The notes below the pieces were generated by a model. The model was not told where the DNA came from and did not search any database. It was given only the letters and a program-made list of their open reading frames with translations. Of a stretch of 64,000 bases of DNA, positions 8,926 to 63,661 are shown one piece after another. Origin of the DNA: Candidatus Adlerbacteria bacterium (GTDB lineage: Bacteria; Patescibacteriota; Minisyncoccia; Phycocordibacterales; SBAW01); contig DAIDHJ010000001.1 of assembly GCA_027451965.1 (NCBI GenBank), positions 356,799 through 420,798 on the forward strand, in the 5' to 3' direction. Position numbers and translations under genes: made by a program. Numbering within the stretch: position 1 is the stretch's first letter; every line of letters starts with the position of its first letter.

Positions 8926-8960
8926 TTGACAAATAGATAATAGTATGTGTATTATATGAA
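8926..8960 (+). promoter_or_regulatory. sigma70-like promoter TTGACA-18 nt-TATTAT
   Basis: Consensus -35 and near-consensus -10, read directly from sequence about 40 nt upstream of an AGGAGG RBS. Confidence 0.6.
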
Positions 8961-8995
8961 AGCAGGGTGTATTTATCTTGCAGAAGGAGGAAACT

Positions 8996-9166
8996 ATGGT
9001 TCCCAAAAGAAGGGAACAACCTCGAGGAAGGTCGCGCCTTATTCATTTACTTCTGGAAGCGAGAAAAACTTCAGAAGGATCAGAAGGAAAAGAAAAGGGC
9101 GAGACGTCCGATAATACCAACCCTGAAGAAAGCTCCGTCGAAGACGGAGCTTCTTTATATAAGTAA
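8996..9166 (+). CDS. small charged protein (56 aa; basic N-terminus, acidic C-terminus), unknown function
   Basis: AGGAGG 6 nt before ATG 8996. Consensus promoter upstream and a strong intrinsic terminator immediately downstream. Confidence 0.5.
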   Translation: MVPKRREQPRGRSRLIHLLLEARKTSEGSEGKEKGETSDNTNPEESSVEDGASLYK

Positions 9167-22565: not shown

Positions 22566-25406
22566 ATGGAACAGTACGATCATAAAAAAATAGAAAAAAA
22601 ATGGCAGCGCTTCTGGCAAGAAAAGCACACATTTGAAGCAGGCGAGGATCAAAAGAAAGAAAAAAACTACATTCTCATCGAATTTCCATACCCCTCAGGA
22701 GACGGACTCCATGTGGGACATGTGCGCTCTTGGACTGCGCTTGATATTGTTGCGCGCAAACGCCGCGCAGAAGGAAAGAACGTGCTCTATCCCATTGGGT
22801 GGGATGCGTTCGGACTTCCGACTGAAAATTATGCGATCAAAACAGGGAAAGATCCTCGGATCGTTACCAAAGAAAATACGGATACCTTTCGCCGGCAGAT
22901 TCAATCTCTCGGTATTTCATTTGATTGGTCCAGAGAAATAAATACCTCTGATCCGGACTACTACCGATGGACGCAGTGGATTTTTTTGCAGCTCTACCGG
23001 CAAGGTCTTGCATATAAAGCGAAGACATATATTAACTGGTGCCCAAAAGATAAAATCGGATTAGCAAACGAAGAGGTGATAGACGGCGCATGCGAACGCT
23101 GCGGCACACCGGTTGAAAAGCGAGAGAAAGAACAGTGGATGATGGCGATTACGAAGTATGCGCAACGGCTCTATGATGATCTCGATACCGTAGACTATAT
23201 CCCGCAGGCAAAATTGCAGCAGCGAAACTGGATCGGTCCTTCTCAAGGCGCAGAGATACGATTTCCCATTAAGGACAGTGATCGTTCTATCGCTGTGTTT
23301 ACCACGAGACCCGATACCCTCTATGGCGCTACGTACGTGGTGCTTGCTCCGGAGTTGCTCTTAGCGGCCCAGCTTGCCGAGCAGGCTGAAAACCGGGATG
23401 AGCTGAAGGAATATATTGTGGCAACACAACAAGTCTCTGAAATGGAGCGCACCGCAGAAGGGAAAGAAAAAACGGGCATAGAGATGAAGGGAATACGCGC
23501 CATCAATCCTGTAACTAAAAAAGAAATCCCTATTTTTGTTGCCAACTATGTGCTTGGCGGGTATGGCACCGGAGCGGTTATGGGTGTTCCTGCGCATGAT
23601 CAGCGGGATTATCTCTTTGCAAAGCGATTTCATCTTCCGATACAAACGGTATTAGAACCATTAATCACAAAAAAAGAGGGGGAAGATGCATTACAATCCT
23701 CTCTTCCGCTCGTAGAGCGCCGATCTGTCGTGGCGGTCATTAAACACTGGAGCGAAGACAAATATTTGGGAGTCCGTTGGAAACGAACAAATTGGCAAGC
23801 GTTTGTGATTGGCGGCATTGAAGCAGGCGAGGATGCCGCAGCGGCCGGCAAGCGAGAAATCAGGGAAGAGACAGGGTATCGCAATGCAACGCCAGTGCGC
23901 TCGCTCGGCGGAACGGTGCATGCCCAGTTCTATCAAACACTCAAACAAGAGAACCGGTTTGCCCATTTTGAACCGATGCTCTTTCAGCTCGAGAATGCGG
24001 AGCGCGATCCGATAACACCCGAAGAGCAGGCACTCCATGATCTCGTCTGGCTTTCTCCAGAGGAAATGGATGCGTTCATCACCCATCCTGATATGCAGAT
24101 CATATGGGACCGCGTGAAAGGAAACGAGTGCTACACCGGCGAAGGTATACTCATCCATTCCGGCACATTTGATGGCTTGGAAAGCGAAGTAGCAAAAGAA
24201 AAAATCACTGCATCTGTAGACGGTGTGCCGCGGACGGTATTTCGCTTGCGTGATTGGATATTTTCTCGACAGCGCTACTGGGGAGAACCAATTCCGATGA
24301 TTCAGTGTCCATCATGCGGATGGGTGCCAGTGCCGGAAAGTGAGCTACCAGTTCTGTTGCCGGAAGTGGATCGCTATGAACCAACCGATAGTGGAGAATC
24401 GCCACTCGCGGCGATTACTTCATGGGTAGAAACCACGTGTCCCTCCTGTAAGGGTCCGGCAAAACGAGAAACAGATGTGATGCCTAATTGGGCAGGCTCT
24501 TCCTGGTACTATTTGCGCTACTGCGATCCGAAAAATACGAAACAGTTTGCTTCAGAAGATACACTGCGCTACTGGACGCCGGTTGATTGGTACAACGGCG
24601 GCATGGAGCACACGACACTCCACCTCCTTTATTCGCGTTTCTGGCACAAAGCGCTCTATGATCTAAAGCTCGTACCAACGAGCGAACCGTATATGAAGCG
24701 CACCTCCCACGGTCTTATTCTTGCCGCAGGAGGAGAGAAGATGTCCAAATCAAAAGGCAATGTCGTCAATCCGGATGACATTGTAGAGCGCTATGGTGCA
24801 GATGCGCTTCGTCTCTATGAAATGTTCCTGGGACCTTTTGATCAACCCGTCGCCTGGAATGAAGACAGTATTATCGGTGTCCGACGGTTTCTTGAGCGAG
24901 TGTGGAAGCTTGCGAAACAACCAACCGCACAAGAACCTGCGCCGGAAACAGAACAGTTGCTTGCGCATACTATAGCGAAAATCACTTCAGATATTGAATC
25001 ACTCAAATGCAATACTGCGGTGAGTCAGTTGATGATCATGCTCAAAACGTTTGAGCAATACGCTCCCACAGAAGAACAATTGCAGATATTCCTCCAATTG
25101 CTCGCGCCATTTGCGCCGCATATTGCCGAAGAGGTGTGGCAAGGCAAGGGGAATACTTCGCTTCTTGAAGAGCTTCCTTGGCCTACCTACAACCCTGAGA
25201 TACTCGTATCCAAGGAAGTAACCATAGCAGTCCAAATCAATGGGAAAGTGCGATCAACGATATCTGCCCCTCTGGATGCTCCAGAACAAGAGGTCATTGA
25301 AAGAGCGCGCAGTGACAACAAGGTACAAACATGGCTTGCTCGAGGAACCGAGACTCGAGTTATGTATGTGCCCGGGCGGGTTGTCAACTTTATACTTGAC
25401 CTATAA
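22566..25406 (+). CDS. leuS: leucine--tRNA ligase with an inserted NUDIX hydrolase domain and apparently shortened CP1 region
   Basis: HIGH (HVGHVRS), TTRPDT, AHDQRD, KMSKS all present. Residues about 385-517 form a NUDIX fold with a perfect Nudix box, GGIEAGEDAAAAGKREIREETGY. Confidence 0.93.
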   Translation: MEQYDHKKIEKKWQRFWQEKHTFEAGEDQKKEKNYILIEFPYPSGDGLHVGHVRSWTALDIVARKRRAEGKNVLYPIGWDAFGLPTENYAIKTGKDPRIVTKENTDTFRRQIQSLGISFDWSREINTSDPDYYRWTQWIFLQLYRQGLAYKAKTYINWCPKDKIGLANEEVIDGACERCGTPVEKREKEQWMMAITKYAQRLYDDLDTVDYIPQAKLQQRNWIGPSQGAEIRFPIKDSDRSIAVFTTRPDTLYGATYVVLAPELLLAAQLAEQAENRDELKEYIVATQQVSEMERTAEGKEKTGIEMKGIRAINPVTKKEIPIFVANYVLGGYGTGAVMGVPAHDQRDYLFAKRFHLPIQTVLEPLITKKEGEDALQSSLPLVERRSVVAVIKHWSEDKYLGVRWKRTNWQAFVIGGIEAGEDAAAAGKREIREETGYRNATPVRSLGGTVHAQFYQTLKQENRFAHFEPMLFQLENAERDPITPEEQALHDLVWLSPEEMDAFITHPDMQIIWDRVKGNECYTGEGILIHSGTFDGLESEVAKEKITASVDGVPRTVFRLRDWIFSRQRYWGEPIPMIQCPSCGWVPVPESELPVLLPEVDRYEPTDSGESPLAAITSWVETTCPSCKGPAKRETDVMPNWAGSSWYYLRYCDPKNTKQFASEDTLRYWTPVDWYNGGMEHTTLHLLYSRFWHKALYDLKLVPTSEPYMKRTSHGLILAAGGEKMSKSKGNVVNPDDIVERYGADALRLYEMFLGPFDQPVAWNEDSIIGVRRFLERVWKLAKQPTAQEPAPETEQLLAHTIAKITSDIESLKCNTAVSQLMIMLKTFEQYAPTEEQLQIFLQLLAPFAPHIAEEVWQGKGNTSLLEELPWPTYNPEILVSKEVTIAVQINGKVRSTISAPLDAPEQEVIERARSDNKVQTWLARGTETRVMYVPGRVVNFILDL

Positions 25407-56374: not shown

Positions 56375-56405
56375 AAAACTCCCTTAGTGGGAGTTTTCTT
56401 TTTTG
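56375..56405. terminator. bidirectional intrinsic terminator AAAACTCCC-TTAGT-GGGAGTTTTCTTTTTTG
   Basis: 9-bp stem flanked by an A-run and a T-run. Lies between convergent genes. Confidence 0.7.
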
Positions 56406-57061
56406 TGCGTATGCATGGTATATGGAATTCGTTTCTTCCCGTTCCATTCCACCAGCTCCATCGCTTTGCGCTCAATGGGAAGCCCTCTGCGCAAACGGCG
56501 CATCGCTGCCTTGGGAGCAATGGGATAGTGGCGCGCGTCATCAAGATCTTCCGCGATCCATTCAAGTTCCTCTTCTGCAATAATCCACTGCGGGTCATAT
56601 CGGCGCAGATCGAACGCTCCGGAATACGCGAGAAGCGATTTCTTCCCGTTCCAGAGCAGATACTCGTGGAAATATGACATAGCGAGTTCCCGTATCGATT
56701 TGTATACCGGATCGCGCCAGCGCAGTATCGCATGATTCGTTTTACTGATGGCGCCCCACAATCCGTCCTGCTTGAAGATCGCGACGACGTGATCCTCATC
56801 TATCGGCAGCGTTCGAAAATCCATAAGAAGCGGGGGGTAGCCATGGTAGGCGAGGGAAGCGGCAGCGAACAGTGCTCCTTCCAGGCAATGAGCTTTCTTT
56901 TCTCGCAGCACTCTTCGCGGCGAGAGTACTCCTTCCTTCGTCTCTTCAAAATTAATAGGGAGAGTGTCTAAAAAATCTTGTATCTTTTGCGGAGTACGCA
57001 GTGACTGAAATACCTTCCGTTCCTGAGAGGAAAGAAGAGGTTTGAAGCGGTCGGCATACAT
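56384..57061 (-). CDS. hypothetical protein; possible Cys/His hydrolase fold (AHCLEGA...DEDHVV)
   Basis: ORF plus a TATAAT and G-rich RBS upstream on the minus strand. Catalytic assignment is speculative. Confidence 0.4.
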   Translation of the reverse strand: MYADRFKPLLSSQERKVFQSLRTPQKIQDFLDTLPINFEETKEGVLSPRRVLREKKAHCLEGALFAAASLAYHGYPPLLMDFRTLPIDEDHVVAIFKQDGLWGAISKTNHAILRWRDPVYKSIRELAMSYFHEYLLWNGKKSLLAYSGAFDLRRYDPQWIIAEEELEWIAEDLDDARHYPIAPKAAMRRLRRGLPIERKAMELVEWNGKKRIPYTMHTHKKENSH

Positions 57062-57497
57062 AACCCTTCCATTATACGGCTCATCGAGGATTTGGATAAA
57101 AAAAGACCCTCAATCTTTTTAGGGAGAGAGGGTCAGGGACTCACGCTTCTGGAGGATTGAATGGCGTCCGGGGCGTAGTGCGCTACGACTTCGCTCCCGG
57201 ACAAGTAGAGTATATCATGTGTCTTCTTATGAAAGGAAAAGGATCTGAAACCTCCTGGGAACAAGCTTCAGATCCTCGTCTCATGCTAAGTGCATGGACA
57301 TTGATTACCATAGCATTTTCTATATAAAAAGTTTACCGAATTTTGAGAAAGGGGGTAAATTTATTACAAATCCTTACTTGTTTGATTACATAAGCATTGC
57401 ACAACCCTCGTTTAAGGGATAAAAGAAGTCGAAAAACTTGTCGAAATAAATGATGTGGTGCAATTTATACTAGTGATATAGGATTATTAATAAATAG

Positions 57498-58196
57498 ATG
57501 ATCCCCAAATTACGCAGTCTCTATGATTGGATATTAGTTGCAATAGCGAACTTAGTTTTTTTATTTGTAATTTATCATTGGTTACAGCCTGGAAAATCTT
57601 TCCCTGATTTAAGTAACTGGTCATATATAGCTCAAATAATAACAGCGATTGGCGTAGTTGGAATTTTATATACTGCAGCCGCATATAAATATCAAATTAA
57701 AAGAGATAATGATACATCTGCTATTGCTCAAATAGAGTTTTTTAGAGAAAAAATAATTCCAAAAACTAATGATCTAATCGATATAATCCAAAAAATTAAT
57801 CCTTTATATTCTTTTCCTAGACCTAATTGTTCTCTTAAAGAATTTACTATAACTTTTTGGTGGAAAAATTTTCCAGATATATCTAAAATTCAAGCTGATA
57901 TATCAAAAAATAATAAAGTTTATGAAGTCCAAATTGATTTATTAAATATACTAGAAGATTTTTCTTTAAAGGTTTTATATATAGGTACGGTTAAACATGA
58001 AGCCCTTAAATCTATTCAAGGATTATTTATAAAAAACGTTGAACAAAATCTTTCGAGTATTTTTGCAATGGAGCTTTCAACTGGTGCTATATACCCAGGC
58101 ACCAGAAAACTCTATGAATATTGGAAAAACCTTGTTGATAGAAGGAGTCGCTCAGAAAGAGCACATGACCTAGGGATGACTCTCCCTAGTGTCTAA
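57498..58196 (+). CDS. hypothetical membrane protein in AT-rich island
   Basis: Two N-terminal TM helices. Low-GC codon usage distinct from neighbours. Confidence 0.4.
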   Translation: MIPKLRSLYDWILVAIANLVFLFVIYHWLQPGKSFPDLSNWSYIAQIITAIGVVGILYTAAAYKYQIKRDNDTSAIAQIEFFREKIIPKTNDLIDIIQKINPLYSFPRPNCSLKEFTITFWWKNFPDISKIQADISKNNKVYEVQIDLLNILEDFSLKVLYIGTVKHEALKSIQGLFIKNVEQNLSSIFAMELSTGAIYPGTRKLYEYWKNLVDRRSRSERAHDLGMTLPSV

Positions 58197-58426
58197 CCCC
58201 TCTTGGCGAGCTCTCTCCAGTATTTTTTTACCAATATTAGAATCTCTTCCGAAGAGATCCATGGCTGCATTAAAGCTATCCTGGTCTAACATGTTTATAT
58301 TTCTATTCTATATCCTTAATATATTAATATACAAGTATACTCTTGGGATTGTGAAAATTAAGGAAATTTAAACAGAGAAATCAGTTCTTTATACAGGAAG
58401 GGAAGTAGGATAGAGTAGAGGGGTGT

Positions 58427-58888
58427 ATGGAATTAAAAATAGCCATAGTCGCAGCAATTTTTTCTTTTTTAGGATCTATAGGAGGAGGGTATTTGGTTTG
58501 GTTTCTAAGTGCTGAGAATGAAAGATATTTAAAACTTTACGGTCCTCTGAAATTTAATTTAGAAATGATGAAACTTATTACTCAAAATAGAGATGATGTA
58601 ATTACAGATATCAAAAAATGGGAAAATCCTCAAAATCAAATAGATTTAATAAAAAAACATATAAACCCACTAGTAAAAAAATGGATAGAACACAAAGATA
58701 ATGTAAGAAATCTTTTTGAAAAATATCCTGGTTTAATACGAAAGAAAGACTTTAAAAAGGTTTCTGATTTTATGGATGGATGTATTAAAAGAGAAATTAC
58801 AGAAGATTTACAGAATTTTCTCGCCCTAGAGGAAGAAAGGGTTGATAAGCTTTTAAGAATAGTTACCCTACTTCAAGAAAAAATATAG
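58427..58888 (+). CDS. hypothetical protein with N-terminal TM helix (AT-rich island)
   Basis: GAGGGG RBS-like run before ATG. Lys/Glu-rich helical body. Confidence 0.4.
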   Translation: MELKIAIVAAIFSFLGSIGGGYLVWFLSAENERYLKLYGPLKFNLEMMKLITQNRDDVITDIKKWENPQNQIDLIKKHINPLVKKWIEHKDNVRNLFEKYPGLIRKKDFKKVSDFMDGCIKREITEDLQNFLALEEERVDKLLRIVTLLQEKI

Positions 58889-59604
58889 ATTACTCTTTAT
58901 ACCCTAAATTCTTTTTAGTAATTTCATACCATTTCCTAATAAACCATCCTTTGAACCAGTTTGCAGGATAAAAATAAAAAGGTTTATTAGAAACATTTTT
59001 TACATATACATAATAAATATGATTAGATTCCGCTTTGAGAGCTTCAATTAAAAGTGTATTGAATGAAGAATCATTAAAACCACTAAATAGGGGAGAGTAG
59101 ATCTACCTCCTAATCGTACCTCAGCTTCTTCTCCCCTGGCCCTTTGTTAAGGGAAGAGAACGTTAAGCATTGCATGGGCGAACTTATTTTTTTTCTTGTG
59201 CATGAATGTATAAGGGTATTTAGGCGGATATAGTTTTGTGACCAAGGATGAAAGAGGAAGGATGTTAAACGGCGTTATGGTGCACAGCTTGTCGAGTATA
59301 TATACGTCGCACAATCCTTCTTTTGCGACGTATATATAATAAATAATAAAGGGATTTCAAACAAGACTTATAAACCAACAAAACAATAAGCCTTGTTACT
59401 ATTCCTATTCTAAAAGATCAGTATGTTACTTCTCTTTTGTGAATAAAGTATTTCCTTTTTAGAACTCTCTTCAGCGGTATACTGGACAATTTTTTGCAAT
59501 CAAATTTCAATAACTTCTTACTTACAATTATCAGATACAGGGTTTCAGCCTCATTAAAAATTTCTCCATAAAAAGGGAATTGGCTTCCCTTTTAATTCCC
59601 TTTT

Positions 59605-59760
59605 TTATTTAAATGCAAACGCCATCAGTATAATGGTCAGCGCATTAAGTACTACCAATACTGTAACCATTTGCCCTTTAGATGCAAGTGGGTGCATCAA
59701 TATATAAATTGTATAGATGATAGCTACGATTGCTGCGCCAATAAAATTTCCTCGTATCAT
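59605..59760 (-). CDS. possible 51-aa two-helix membrane peptide
   Basis: ORF below track cutoff, found by reading the reverse complement. Followed on the minus strand by an AAGGGAATT/AATTCCCTT hairpin plus T-run. No clear SD. Confidence 0.3.
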   Translation of the reverse strand: MIRGNFIGAAIVAIIYTIYILMHPLASKGQMVTVLVVLNALTIILMAFAFK

Positions 59761-59834
59761 AGATTTATAAGGTTAAGACCTTAATATATTTCTATTGTAC
59801 TATCTTTTTTATATAAAAAAGAAAAAGGCTCTGG

Positions 59835-60140
59835 TTATTTACCAGAGCCTTTGATGAGACTGATGACAATGTAATCCTGTCTCTCGCCGCAGTAGATGGA
59901 AAACGTGTGCTTCGGCATGAATGCCGAGGAAATGTTTGTGATTGACCGTTCACCGGGGTGATTCTTGTAGCTGCATTCGATGATGAGATCGCCTTTGATT
60001 TCTTGCGGGTTTATGGAAACAGTGTCACCGAATTCCATGGTAATGGTGGTGCCGTAGACTGGATCAACTTGCATCGTTGCGGCATTGCTGATGCCGCACG
60101 AAACCAGAACCACGAGAATTACTAAAACTGCCTTGTACAC
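59835..60140 (-). CDS. small secreted lipoprotein (lipobox LVSC)
   Basis: AGGAGG then 6 nt then GTG start (ORF-track TTG start lies inside the RBS). Signal peptide. Consensus promoter upstream and hairpin terminator downstream on the minus strand. Confidence 0.55.
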   Translation of the reverse strand: MYKAVLVILVVLVSCGISNAATMQVDPVYGTTITMEFGDTVSINPQEIKGDLIIECSYKNHPGERSITNISSAFMPKHTFSIYCGERQDYIVISLIKGSGK

Positions 60141-60171
60141 TATGTTCCTCCTCAAAGAACTGTTAATTAAT

Positions 60172-60200
60172 AGTATATAATATTAATATATACTTGTCAA
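60172..60200 (-). promoter_or_regulatory. sigma70-like promoter on minus strand: TTGACA-17 nt-TATACT
   Basis: Reverse complement of 60172-60200 gives a consensus -35 and good -10 about 25 nt upstream of the lipoprotein RBS. Confidence 0.55.
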
Positions 60201-60468
60201 GTATCTGACGGACGGAGGATCTGATCCTTTTCGCACTTTTGAGACCTTAGATTATGCTCCTGCTATCTCGCAGTAAGATGGATTTACAATAAAATAAAAT
60301 GTGGTATTTTGTCATCGGGACAGAACCGGTACCTACTAAGCACCGTCAGTTGCTTAGACTAGACCGAGTTTCATCCAAGAGCTCGCAAATGACTGCTTGA
60401 GCTTCGGAAGCCTCTGGGACCCACACCTGCCCAGAGGCTCTCTGTTTTTAATCCTTTCGTCCCCTATC

Positions 60469-60498
60469 TTGACTTCCCTTTCAAGCAAGTAGTATAAT
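60469..60498 (+). promoter_or_regulatory. sigma70 consensus promoter TTGACT-18 nt-TATAAT
   Basis: Read directly from sequence. No ORF follows within about 250 nt. Confidence 0.6.
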
Positions 60499-60653
60499 AT
60501 AATTCTGCGATGCTCAGTCGTAGAGAACAGGCTCTGGGTTTGGTTGACCACCTTTTCCCAGGGCCTTCTATTTTTCCAAAAACCAGCTATAGTGACAATG
60601 GATCACATTGATCCTCCATGAAGACTAGTTCCATCTCTCACGGATGAGCCCGG

Positions 60654-60693
60654 GCCTCGAGTAACACATGTTACTTGAGGCCTTTTACTTTTC
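60654..60693 (+). terminator. intrinsic terminator/attenuator GGCCTCGAGTAACA-CATG-TTACTTGAGGCC + TTTTACTTTT
   Basis: 12-bp stem plus T-rich tail. Lies about 150 nt downstream of the consensus promoter and 60 nt upstream of a small ORF's RBS. Confidence 0.55.
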
Positions 60694-60754
60694 ACTGTAC
60701 AACCATACCTCTATTTGTTATCTTCCATATCGGAGGATTAGTACATGCAAAAAC

Positions 60755-60880
60755 GATGGTTAGCTATTGCTGCAGTTGGCGTGATCGCCATCGGAGTGGG
60801 AACCCACTTCGCCCGGACGATCGCGTCCAGCAAACCTCCCAAGGAAGGAGAATCGCAACCTGCATCATAAGCTGATCAAC
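60755..60880 (+). CDS. 41-aa membrane peptide (MQKRWLAIAAVGVIAIGVGTHFARTIASSKPPKEGESQPAS)
   Basis: GGAGGA 7 nt before ATG. Single TM helix. Hairpin terminator (AAAGCCCTG...CAGGGCTTT) follows. Confidence 0.45.
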
Positions 60881-61170
60881 TGACACCAAAGCCCTGGATC
60901 AACCTGATTCAGGGCTTTCTCTTGTTTGTACCAAAACTGGTAACTATACAATTAATAAAAAACATTGTATAATTGCTCCAGAAAGCATTGGGAAAAACCC
61001 AGAAAGGAAATAAGGTGCATAGGTTCATAGAGGCTGGCACGCTGGTCATAGTTGCCATGAGCACTCTCTTGTATCGTCGACACATCATCAGACGTGCAAA
61101 GGCAAGAGAACATCAGAATGAATCACGTTGCCCGTATAAAGTAGAACCCAAAACATGAACGGAGGCTATT

Positions 61171-61413
61171 ATGGTACCGTTTCTCATTGGAGTGGTGATT
61201 ACTCTTTTGGTCCTGTGGGATGCAATGCATACCCACCTGCTCAAGAGTATAGGCATACTCTTCCTGGTAGTCTGCTTTCTGAGTTATCTCACTCTTTATC
61301 CTCGATCGGAAGCTTTTGCTTATCTCTGCGGAGGTATTGCACTTGGATTGATCATCGGGTTCATCAGTTGGCTTATCTTCAAGAGGATGGGTATTACTTC
61401 TGAGCACAATTAA
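61171..61413 (+). CDS. small two-TM membrane protein, paralog family member (CGG...WLIF motif)
   Basis: GGAGG RBS. Own terminator at 61425-61455 (AGCCCGC-loop-GCGGGCTTTTTATT). Confidence 0.55.
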   Translation: MVPFLIGVVITLLVLWDAMHTHLLKSIGILFLVVCFLSYLTLYPRSEAFAYLCGGIALGLIIGFISWLIFKRMGITSEHN

Positions 61414-61505
61414 TTCTATCGATACAAGCCCGCTCAAAATGCGGGCTTTTTATTGCATGTACAAAAACAGTCGTAGTGGTAAGGTAACCCTAGAAAGGAG
61501 GTGGA

Positions 61506-61616
61506 ATGGTGGATCGATCGGTACTGTTTCTTGCCGCAATTCCGATTGCCGTAGGACTTCTCACCGTAATTCTCATTTGGAGAACCAGGAGAAAAGACAA
61601 ACAATTTCTTCTATAA
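61506..61616 (+). CDS. 36-aa single-TM peptide
   Basis: AAAGGAGGTGGA then ATG. Hydrophobic core then RTRRKDKQ. Hairpin GAGCCGCG...CGCGGCTC follows. Confidence 0.4.
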   Translation: MVDRSVLFLAAIPIAVGLLTVILIWRTRRKDKQFLL

Positions 61617-61720
61617 CACTACACGAGCCGCGTGGATTCCTTTCCCCGCGGCTCTAATAGTACTCGGTAACCATGTACTAATGAAATAATTCATGGTATT
61701 ATTTTAATAGGAGGTAGCTC

Positions 61721-62032
61721 ATGAAAACATGGCATGCCGGCACCTTGGTTGCCGCTGGAATCCTCGGGTTTCTGTTTGCAGGCTTCGGCCTCGTGGTATC
61801 CGCATTCTGGGGAGAACTATTCTTTCGTTCCTTCCCCACCCCCGAGCAGGGCGCTACGCTCGTACAGCTCAACTTTTACCTGGCGCTTGCGCTCATCGCT
61901 TCCATCATCAGTACGATCTGCGGAGGTGCATGGCTGATCTTCTCACAACCAGAATTTCGACAAACACACAAAGGAAACGAGCAAGATTCGATCAAGCTCC
62001 TCAAAGGTCGTTATGCGGTCCCCAGCAATTAG
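61721..62032 (+). CDS. small two-TM membrane protein, paralog family member (ICGGAWLIF)
   Basis: AGGAGG RBS. Terminator GGTCCCCAGC-AATT-AGCTGGGGACC + T-run immediately after stop. Confidence 0.55.
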   Translation: MKTWHAGTLVAAGILGFLFAGFGLVVSAFWGELFFRSFPTPEQGATLVQLNFYLALALIASIISTICGGAWLIFSQPEFRQTHKGNEQDSIKLLKGRYAVPSN

Positions 62033-62111
62033 CTGGGGACCCTCTTTTTGTAGCATGCATTGTAAAACATGCAAGGTTGGGTAAGATATCTCACAGAAAA
62101 GGAGTTTGTCA

Positions 62112-62408
62112 GTGCTCAATCATTGGAATATTTCAACTCTCATAGGTTCTTTCCTTATAGCGGCGGGGGTAGTTCTCATATACGCCAAGACGATACGAAC
62201 ATGGAGCTTCCGGTCGAGTGTGCAGTTTTTTTGCTTTGCCATCCCGCTCTTTCTTGTCGTCTTCTGCGGCTCTCTCCTTCTGAGCTACAACGTGACGCAT
62301 ATAAAAAAACCATTTCCTCTCATTCAACCAGCAAACCACTCCCTAGGTTTTGTACCATCAAACATTACACCCGAGAAAAGCTCGGGTGTTTTTTCTCCGT
62401 CAATCTAA
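62112..62408 (+). CDS. small membrane protein, paralog family member
   Basis: AAAAGGAG 7 nt before GTG 62112. Terminator CACCCGAG-loop-CTCGGGTG + T6 at its 3' end. Confidence 0.5.
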   Translation: MLNHWNISTLIGSFLIAAGVVLIYAKTIRTWSFRSSVQFFCFAIPLFLVVFCGSLLLSYNVTHIKKPFPLIQPANHSLGFVPSNITPEKSSGVFSPSI

Positions 62409-62782
62409 ACATCTTCATCCTCGCTTTAAACAACATCATGTACATTGTTGTAGTGCTATCCTACAGCACACTCCGGTAGGCCTTAGCGGTGCAACCTGTT
62501 AAGGCCTTATTTTTTATTATTTTTATTTAGAAGCAGACATCATGGGAAAAACAGAACCAGCAGATTATGATTCCAGTCAAGAAGAACAGCTCGATGAAAT
62601 GCGTATAGGTGGTGCTGATACTGACGGAAGTCTGACTATGGATGAGAGGGAGGCTCCGGAAGATGAAGCTCTTTCATGAACCATAAGAGTCTTCCGTGCA
62701 CACGTGCCATCTGTACAAACCCCTCTGTAGCGGTATGCTACAGGCAGTCGCCCTTTGCCTGTACGGAGGAAAAGTATAAAGG

Positions 62783-63184
62783 ATGACGTCTCTCATATTC
62801 CTGGTTCTCATACTCCTGACCTTCTGCTTCGCCCGACTCCTCAAGGAACAAGAAGCGGTCTCGGGCGCCCTCGGCGCACTCGCATTCTGCTACGGTCTGT
62901 ACCTCATGCTGGTCTTCCAGAGCAACGATCTGCTCTCCTGGGCTCTTCTCGTCGCCGGCATGATCGTCATCGGATACGCACTCAGGGAGCGCATCCGCTC
63001 CGGATACGAGATGGTCATGGGTATCCTCGGCGCACTCGTATTCTGCTACGGTCTCTACATCATACTGGACGCACACCATACCGATGCGCTCTCACTCATC
63101 GCACTCGTCGTCGGACCGCTCCTATACGGGTACTCTCTCAAGGTACTACCGTTCGGTCCATCGCCGACACCACAACGTCGGTAA
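62783..63184 (+). CDS. four-TM membrane protein made of an internal tandem duplication of the same two-TM unit (GALxFCYGLY x2)
   Basis: Two repeats ~50 aa each. Terminator GAGCCCTCG-loop-CGAGGGCTC follows. Overlapping ORFs in other frames here have no such support. Confidence 0.55.
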   Translation: MTSLIFLVLILLTFCFARLLKEQEAVSGALGALAFCYGLYLMLVFQSNDLLSWALLVAGMIVIGYALRERIRSGYEMVMGILGALVFCYGLYIILDAHHTDALSLIALVVGPLLYGYSLKVLPFGPSPTPQRR

Positions 63185-63235
63185 CGCGCACACACGAGCC
63201 CTCGGAAATTCGAGGGCTCTCTTCTTTAAAAATCA

Positions 63236-63631
63236 ATGTATAGTGTAAAGAACCGTATGCGAAATGCTTGGCAACAACTCTATGCTCCACTTATCGGACG
63301 CATCCTCATCGGCGGCTTTTTCCTGTGGAACGGCATTCAGGAGTCGCTTAACCTCTCCGTCACTATTGATTCGTTTGTCGGAGCACATATCACTCACGCC
63401 AGTATGTGGGCCCTCATTGCAGTATGGATTGAAATCCTTGGCGGTCTTGCGTTAGTGGTCGGATTCAAAACGCGTTTTGTCGCACTTATCATGGCCGTCT
63501 TTGTACTTCTCATTTCGACCCTCCTTGGTAAATTTGTGAGCGACGCCGAGATCACCTTCTTCCTCCAAAATATGGCTATTGTCGGCGGACTCTTCTATAT
63601 TTCCGCATTCGGTTCCGGATCCTGGGAATAA
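63236..63631 (+). CDS. DoxX-family membrane protein
   Basis: GRILIGGFFLWNGIQ DoxX signature, four TM helices. Terminator AAAAATCACCGC-loop-GCGGTGATTTTTG after stop. Confidence 0.7.
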   Translation: MYSVKNRMRNAWQQLYAPLIGRILIGGFFLWNGIQESLNLSVTIDSFVGAHITHASMWALIAVWIEILGGLALVVGFKTRFVALIMAVFVLLISTLLGKFVSDAEITFFLQNMAIVGGLFYISAFGSGSWE

Positions 63632-63661
63632 CAAAAATCACCGCCGAAGCGGTGATTTTTG

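Follow-up and report, generated by a model that had tools for sequence, protein, structure and literature searches.

What does a stretch of bacterial DNA specify when it carries promoters and terminators and no gene? The question is raised by 585 nt (positions 60160-60744) of the 64,000-nt stretch of Candidatus Adlerbacteria DNA analysed here (the window). Neither strand of these 585 nt holds a credible open reading frame (ORF); a minus-strand gene for a protein of 101/106 aa lies to the left, and the ATG of a 41-aa membrane peptide follows at 60745. A first-pass annotation, made from the sequence by eye, had seen here a strong promoter, hairpins followed by T-runs and the downstream peptide, and had proposed either tandem small RNAs (sRNAs) or a riboswitch- or attenuator-controlled leader. 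The explanation that we put first, with slightly less than even confidence, is that the gene-free stretch carries two small non-coding units, independently promoted and bounded by terminators, and that the peptide is held at a low level by terminator read-through and by sequestration of its Shine-Dalgarno (SD) sequence.

Results

Two Candidate Non-Coding Units

The first unit, A, lies on the plus strand, as do all features described below unless noted otherwise. Promoter A (60283-60310), recognised by sequence match, reads TTTACA-16-TATTTT with an extended -10 TG. The ~130-nt RNA predicted to follow it (60317-60450) folds into three hairpins: one that is long and irregular (60318-60376), another at 60379-60404, and the terminator hairpin (60405-60444, with U5), in which a 14-bp stem is followed by UUUUU (-22.6 kcal/mol, z -4.3). 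The whole fold has a free energy of -53.4 kcal/mol and a z-score of -4.8, and the body without the terminator still has a z-score of -3.9. Because unit A is followed by another promoter, it would not be a premature-termination product of a downstream leader, and we regard it as a candidate stand-alone sRNA. A resemblance of its sequence GGGACAGAACCGG to the CR-V motif of RNase P RNA was dropped, as there is no room for the remainder of that RNA and no Rfam signal.

Promoter B (TTGACT-18-TATAAT, 60469-60498), on which the first-pass annotation had centred, matches the sigma-70 consensus at 11 of 12 positions. Only three such matches occur in the 64 kb, all of them intergenic, compared with 1.0 +/- 1.0 in dinucleotide shuffles. 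Behind it, unit B (60504-60576, ~72 nt) is predicted to fold into a 5' hairpin (60504-60524, -9.7 kcal/mol) and terminator 1, a stem at 60529-60566 that runs into the U-tract UUCUAUUUUU (-21.7 kcal/mol, z -4.0). Transcripts passing terminator 1 would enter unit C (60577-60695), a read-through extension composed of a variable 5' part, an invariant block and terminator 2; no separate promoter was found for this unit. In terminator 2, a stem of 14 bp with near-perfect pairing (60652-60683) runs into UUUUACUUUU (-24.0 kcal/mol, z -8.6). The two hairpins with T-runs seen by eye downstream of promoter B are therefore real, the first of them offset by ~10 nt from the interval given for it (60539-60575). 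The main hairpins of the locus range from -20.7 to -24 kcal/mol, with z-scores of -4 to -8.6. Terminator-like sites as a class are enriched more than three-fold in the surrounding 57-64 kb (17 seen, 5.0 +/- 2.4 expected), and strong ones are almost missing from 20-57 kb. From these matches and folds we infer that the units are transcribed and that their terminators work.

The 'bona fide' sRNA genes of PMC5826253 are those that have their own promoter and their own terminator and are not antisense to a gene. At the level of consensus sequences, unit A has both a promoter and an intrinsic terminator of its own, with no gene on the opposite strand, and formally so does unit B (promoter 60469-60498, terminator 60529-60576). 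Since a co-oriented ORF without its own promoter lies after unit B, this unit may also be a leader product; on the best reading, it either is an sRNA or arises by premature termination in a long leader.

Predicted Stems Are Spared from Substitution

Stem prediction used only the window sequence, and the stems were then compared with L092, a contig (1683 nt, 91.8% identical; spanning 59905-61500) from the only diverged strain available. Six contigs from other samples (L082-L085, L093 and L094) are ~99% identical to the window and too similar to be informative. Two neighbouring genes behave as coding in the L092 comparison, with a synonymous divergence (dS) of 0.13-0.16 and a ratio of non-synonymous to synonymous divergence (dN/dS) of 0.2-0.3. 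The ORFs of 30-65 aa that can be drawn within 60160-60744 are either broken in L092 or changed non-synonymously only. Those inside units A and B stay open but have acquired only non-synonymous changes, an argument against coding. The earlier statement that no credible ORF follows promoter B thus holds for the whole gene-free stretch.

Units A and B differ from L092 by 7.2% and 4.1%, respectively, a rate of change 3-5 times lower than that of the adjacent spacers, of which spacer 1 has diverged by 20.5%, with three indels, and spacer 2 by 16.7% (units A and B versus spacers, Fisher p=3e-5). The fast-evolving spacer at 60205-60282 provides a local, near-neutral baseline. Promoter A shows 1 change in 29 nt (3.4%), and the promoter B segment, with 10 changes in 35 nt (28.6%), is the most diverged of all. 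The first-pass annotation had described the upstream promoter as the weaker of the two and as preceding a similar hairpin; both elements are present, with the emphasis reversed, promoter A being the conserved one. In L092 promoter B reads TTGACT-18-TACAGT, with the -35 hexamer intact, T1, A2 and T6 of the -10 hexamer kept and the spacer heavily substituted, and on these matches both promoters remain plausible. Further downstream, divergence is 13.3% in the 5' part of unit C, 6.8% in terminator 2, 4.1% in the 5' untranslated region (UTR) with the SD hairpin and 4.0% in the peptide ORF.

The changes avoid the predicted stems. Over 198 nt of stem there are 7 changes, over 397 nt of all other non-coding positions 55 (p=5e-5), and when only positions inside the units are counted the contrast is 7/198 for stems versus 13/133 for the remainder (p=0.03). 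In five of these seven stem cases a C-G, A-U or G-U pair is replaced by another allowed pair; the other two are the loss of the outermost pair of terminator A and a 1-nt deletion in a marginal loop-closing pair. Unit A differs by nine substitutions and one deletion. Seven of these changes are unpaired, one converts CG to UG and one removes the outermost terminator pair already mentioned; apart from the last two, all changes lie in loops or in the 3' tail. The three changes in unit B are all compatible with its structure: one position is unpaired, a UA pair becomes UG and a UG pair becomes UA. Both changes in terminator 2 sit in the loop, and both stem changes in terminator 3, downstream of the peptide gene, preserve pairing. 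Sparing extends to the hairpins that are not terminators: two in unit A (~56 paired nt) and the 5' hairpin of unit B are untouched, whereas loops and spacers change. Two other predicted helices are probably not real, because pairs are lost in L092: two out of six in the hairpin at 60599-60614 and one in the helix that closes unit C. With stem prediction confined to the window and one comparison at ~8% divergence as evidence, the features are real as non-coding elements and apparently under purifying selection.

The Region between Promoter B and the Peptide Gene

Spelled out further, the second proposal of the first-pass annotation would make one conditional 5' leader of the ~240 nt between promoter B and the ATG, responding through a riboswitch, a protein or the ribosome to a signal that overrides the terminators and switches on the peptide, with unit B as its 'off' product. 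The layout is indeed that of such a leader: the peptide gene lacks a promoter, its ATG is preceded by a series of two terminators and a hairpin that sequesters the SD, and the SD and start codon are covered by a 70-nt block that is invariant in L092. Stepwise folding from the predicted start brought out a further element of this kind, a 14-bp long-range helix (60512-60526/60632-60649) that competes with local hairpins and has both strands invariant in L092. This helix, however, encloses terminator 1 and leaves both terminators intact, and the same stepwise folding produced no antiterminator exclusive of either terminator stem. Within unit C, a 29-nt block (60622-60650) is invariant, and the sequence AUCCUCC (CCUCC at 60613-60617) is a perfect complement to the SD region of the peptide, GGAGGAU (60731-60737), and is kept in L092 though its flanks vary. 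The CCUCC motif may be a second, distal anti-SD element; neither it nor the long-range helix amounts to an antiterminator.

Other observations speak against a sensor in this region. The stretch that would have to house it, 60577-60621, is conserved less than any other part of the RNA, with a divergence of 13% or more and a hairpin that is broken in L092. Rfam yielded no aptamer or leader here, even at E<=10, and a candidate leader ORF (60510-60611) changes non-synonymously only. Terminator 2, with its near-perfect 14-bp stem and -24 kcal/mol, likewise argues against a conditional switch. We therefore consider a signal-responsive attenuator unlikely; of that proposal only the layout stands. The tandem sRNAs are the better supported half of the earlier alternative, in view of the promoters, the terminators, the absence of coding signal, the folds and the slow evolution, with transcription itself presumed from these signals. 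We favour them over a riboswitch, and a leader limited by read-through would be an overlay compatible with them.

The Peptide Gene and Its Expression

The 41-aa ORF (MQKRWLAIAAVGVIAIGVGTHFARTIASSKPPKEGESQPAS), recognised as an ORF with an SD, occupies 60745-60870, 10 nt upstream of the interval first assigned to it (60755-60880), and encodes an ORFan peptide with one transmembrane (TM) helix and a polar tail. Its SD, GGAGGA (60731-60736), lies 8 nt (7-nt spacer) before the ATG, the same arrangement as in other genes of this genome, and is paired in a predicted hairpin, AUCUUCC/GGAGGAU (60720-60738; -7.7 kcal/mol, z -2.5). The further terminator that had been noted after the peptide is also found: terminator 3 (60888-60925), a 14-bp stem (60888-60918) with a T-rich tail (z -5.1), is predicted to end the peptide transcript. 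Between terminator 2 and the SD no promoter reaches 9/12; the best by eye scores 8/12, and its start would fall inside the SD. Without a promoter of its own, the peptide has to be expressed by read-through of terminators 1 and 2. All six of the ~99%-identical versions that extend over the ORF have it unchanged, and it is intact in L092, where two synonymous changes and three conservative amino-acid replacements (A to V, P to L, P to S) give a dN/dS of ~0.5, on tiny counts. The invariant 70-nt block extends from 60710 to 60779 and comprises the SD hairpin and the first 12 codons.

These elements suggest the following course of expression. Promoter A, which is conserved, would give unit A as a stand-alone ~130-nt RNA of three hairpins. 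Promoter B would mostly give the ~72-nt unit B RNA, which stops at terminator 1. Polymerases that escape this terminator would continue for ~120 nt to terminator 2 and yield a minor form of ~190 nt, and those that escape both would produce a rare peptide mRNA, whose ribosome-binding site, folded in the hairpin, would further damp translation. The level of the peptide would then be low and set jointly by read-through and SD sequestration.

A small membrane peptide behind structured RNA also recalls toxin-antitoxin (TA) systems of type I, in which case the peptide would be a membrane toxin whose mRNA is silenced by its structured leader, and unit A or B a trans-encoded antitoxin sRNA. In size and shape (41 aa, one TM helix, polar tail) the peptide fits such toxins; the SD is sequestered within a long, structured leader, one or more sRNA-like genes lie directly upstream, the locus is part of a lineage-specific variable island, and the peptide and its initiation region are unusually conserved (4% divergence, 70 nt invariant). 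An antitoxin should nevertheless pair with its target, and complementarity between the sRNAs and the mRNA is within shuffled controls: duplex energies of units A, B and C with the peptide mRNA have z-scores of -0.7 to +0.7. The units are co-oriented with the peptide gene instead of divergent from it, and no convincing antisense promoter-terminator pair was found over the ORF. Neither Pfam nor NCBIfam gave a match at the curated cut-off, PADLOC and PHROGs gave none, and the locus is single-copy in the window. A type I system is, on this balance, very unlikely.

Searches for Known Families and Homologues

The Rfam covariance scan, run as the first-pass annotation had proposed, bore out its impression that no known RNA family is present. 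Against Rfam 15, whose families include riboswitches, leaders, sRNAs, 6S, SRP, RNase P and tmRNA, nothing in 60160-60744 scored at a gathering threshold. Relaxing the limit to E<=10 produced matches at chance level only, each below half of its cut-off, and an E-value scan of the whole window likewise had no finding there; ARAGORN found no tRNA or tmRNA in the region. A sub-threshold Trp_leader match nearby (61363-61454, 35.9 bits against a cut-off of 41) proved to be the GCCCGC/GCGGGC terminator of an 80-aa gene and was rejected. A covariance model of unit A, run over 1.3 Mb, matched only itself. At the corresponding position relatives carry different DNA, with no region homologous to the locus, and blastn of the whole island against phage sequences was negative.

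Protein searches gave a similar picture. The phmmer query was a concatenate of the 106-, 41-, 80-, 36- and 103-aa called proteins of the island and a 61-aa ORF, searched exhaustively against 1.84e9 cluster representatives; the five called proteins found only their own clusters, and the 61-aa ORF found nothing. A word-index search with the peptide returned the peptide itself only. The pattern SD+MQKRWLAI gave one chance match in JGI metagenomes, the lipoprotein signal peptide of a 369-aa protein. Except for DoxX, no island protein matched Pfam or NCBIfam at curated cut-offs, the others staying far below, and none matched PHROGs or PADLOC. The small membrane ORFs of the island were considered as possible paralogues, and this was rejected, their similarity being compositional only.

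Genomic Setting and Neighbouring Features

The candidate RNAs lie in a 6.6-kb lineage-specific insertion (57062-63660) between p225 (56384-57061) and p156 (63662 onwards). Paceibacterota relatives share the synteny on both sides, MurG-GltX ... p225 upstream and p156-p282-L27-L9-S41-CorA downstream, but their p225 and p156 homologues are separated by 150 nt in L005, by 1.5 kb in L003 and by 3.4 kb in L004, and the cargo is unrelated from one to the next. The differences in gap size and cargo indicate that the candidate RNAs sit in a hypervariable slot. Part of the insertion has a G+C content of only 33%. GltX, encoded 4 kb upstream, has its best matches, at 63-64% identity, among Paceibacterota/Parcubacteria sequences from metagenome-assembled genomes, which points to a chromosome of the Patescibacteria (candidate phyla radiation, CPR) without a close representative genome. 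The region is single-copy within the window and belongs to no repeat family; with no second copy and no significant repeats there, a repeat or mobile-element reading was rejected.

On the left, the gene-free stretch is bordered by a secreted ORFan gene (59835-60155, minus strand, 101/106 aa), served by a divergent promoter (TTGACA-17-TATACT, 11/12; 60172-60200, minus strand) at the left edge of the stretch. On the right, beyond terminator 3, a 47-aa ORF with a GTG start (61015-61158) is preceded by a well-matching promoter, TATACA-17-TATAAT (60945-60973). It is open in L092 with 10 amino-acid changes, and its coding status is doubtful because its dN/dS is ~1.1. A 36-aa single-TM ORF (61506-61616) is largely deleted in L092 (61501-61594; the sequence resumes at 61594) and is therefore dispensable or not a gene. 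Similar short blocks recur in the terminator-to-RBS spacers that follow the peptide gene and the 80-aa gene (60912-60937/61443-61468 and 60995-61008/61486-61499; 14-26 nt, 81-86%), which hints that the intergenic modules of this array of small genes may be related. A 133-aa membrane ORF (62783-63184) contains an internal duplication, two ~44-nt segments 156 nt apart with 91% identity, seen in the peptide as the repeats GALGALAFCYGLY and GILGALVFCYGLY; gene callers disagree on the coding strand of this interval in other strains.

Elsewhere in the window, the third 11/12 promoter (TTGACA-18-TATTAT), in the interval 8926-9165, stands before a small, very basic ORF, whose ATG (8997) lies behind GAAGGAGG. 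Consensus promoters in this DNA do, then, precede small independent genes. A hairpin with a T-run lies by the same ORF, at 9130-9152. The leucyl-tRNA synthetase (22566-25406) has an unusual architecture, with a NUDIX hydrolase domain (PF00293, E 2e-11) inserted at residues ~399-501, adjoining the editing domain.

Discussion

The results presented here allow us to weigh the two-unit explanation against its difficulties. Several observations count against it. The alignment check for compensatory changes, which had been proposed with the first-pass annotation and could draw on L092 only, found the stems depleted in substitutions, as described above, and no pair in the units changed on both sides, the absence of double changes being due to the single diverged sequence compared. 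The -10 hexamer of promoter B is not conserved in L092, and terminator A is weakened there, its outermost pair lost and its UUUUU changed to UUUCU. Terminators, moreover, would stay conserved whatever the RNA bodies do, and the surrounding island evolves fast, with neighbouring 47-aa and 36-aa ORFs that look dispensable. No homologue was found elsewhere in the window, none at the DNA level in 80 GltX-anchored Paceibacterota loci (nhmmer, blastn), and none in JGI metagenomes, where a transition-tolerant pattern of unit A had 0 matches. Nor did any sRNA-target complementarity rise above shuffles; the best reached |z| ~2 and was not with the peptide mRNA.

Some of these points are what one would expect of relics, that is, promoters and terminators left over from decayed small genes, with no RNA function, whose low divergence reflects selection on terminators as insulators together with the sampling noise of a single comparison. 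The missing double changes and the drifting -10 of promoter B agree with this, as do the 47-aa ORF with its dN/dS of ~1.1, the deleted 36-aa ORF and the fact that the whole 57.1-63.7 kb block is a lineage-specific ORFan insertion, placed in a slot whose cargo differs from relative to relative. Decay of this kind does not account for the sparing of hairpins other than terminators (the two of unit A, with ~56 paired nt, and the 5' hairpin of unit B), for the conservation of promoter A beside a 20%-diverged spacer, or for the z-score of -3.9 of the unit A body without its terminator. We regard the relic explanation as unlikely. Missing homologues are no argument against function of the two units, since most sRNAs of Staphylococcus aureus are likewise species-specific (PMC5826253).

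Among known systems, bona fide trans-encoded sRNA genes, such as those of the Staphylococcus Rsa RNAs, offer one set of close likenesses to the two units. A sigma-70-type promoter belongs to unit A and, formally, to unit B; the 70-130-nt bodies form several hairpins and end in an intrinsic terminator; no opposite-strand gene overlaps them, they show no coding signal, and they are species-specific, which is the norm in S. aureus (PMC5826253). They differ in being known from sequence alone, in belonging to no Rfam family and in their CPR host. Unit B also resembles sRNAs that arise by termination in a leader, such as the riboswitch-derived SreA and SreB of Listeria or the read-through RsaE-S390, in lying between a promoter and a co-oriented promoterless ORF and in having an intrinsic terminator, with a longer read-through form that would end at a second terminator; here, however, no aptamer or antiterminator was detected, and the downstream gene is a 41-aa ORFan. 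With terminator-type attenuators and riboswitches (the trp leader, RF00513; T-box) the locus has in common a strong promoter and a terminator hairpin with U-tract before an ORF. It departs from them in its tandem full terminators with no competing antiterminator, and the only Trp_leader match nearby is the terminator of the next gene. In the type I TA systems tisB/istR-1, zorO/orzO and shoB/ohsC, as at this locus, the peptide is small and hydrophobic with a single TM helix, the 5' UTR is long and structured and occludes the SD, one or more sRNA-like genes lie immediately before it, and the setting is a variable island; here, though, the units are co-oriented, complementarity is at chance level and the peptide has no homology to a toxin family.

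Patescibacteria (CPR) have tiny genomes and few recognisable regulators. Their post-transcriptional regulation is apparently little charted, and our full-text literature search gave no paper pairing CPR with sRNA terms among the matches listed. A more far-reaching possibility, which we think quite unlikely, is that the locus is a lineage-specific, RNA-controlled membrane-peptide module of a CPR symbiont, either type-I-toxin-like or an sRNA-gated cassette, carried in a hypervariable cargo slot. If this were true, units A and B would count with the earliest regulatory sRNAs to be recognised in the superphylum, and as regulators they would act on the peptide mRNA or on genes for host interaction. 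As it stands, the locus is an ordinary-looking sRNA or leader candidate, of value as a lead and not as a discovery, to which the CPR host adds somewhat; a species-specific pair of sRNA-like units beside an orphan membrane peptide is a concrete starting point for work on post-transcriptional regulation in this group.

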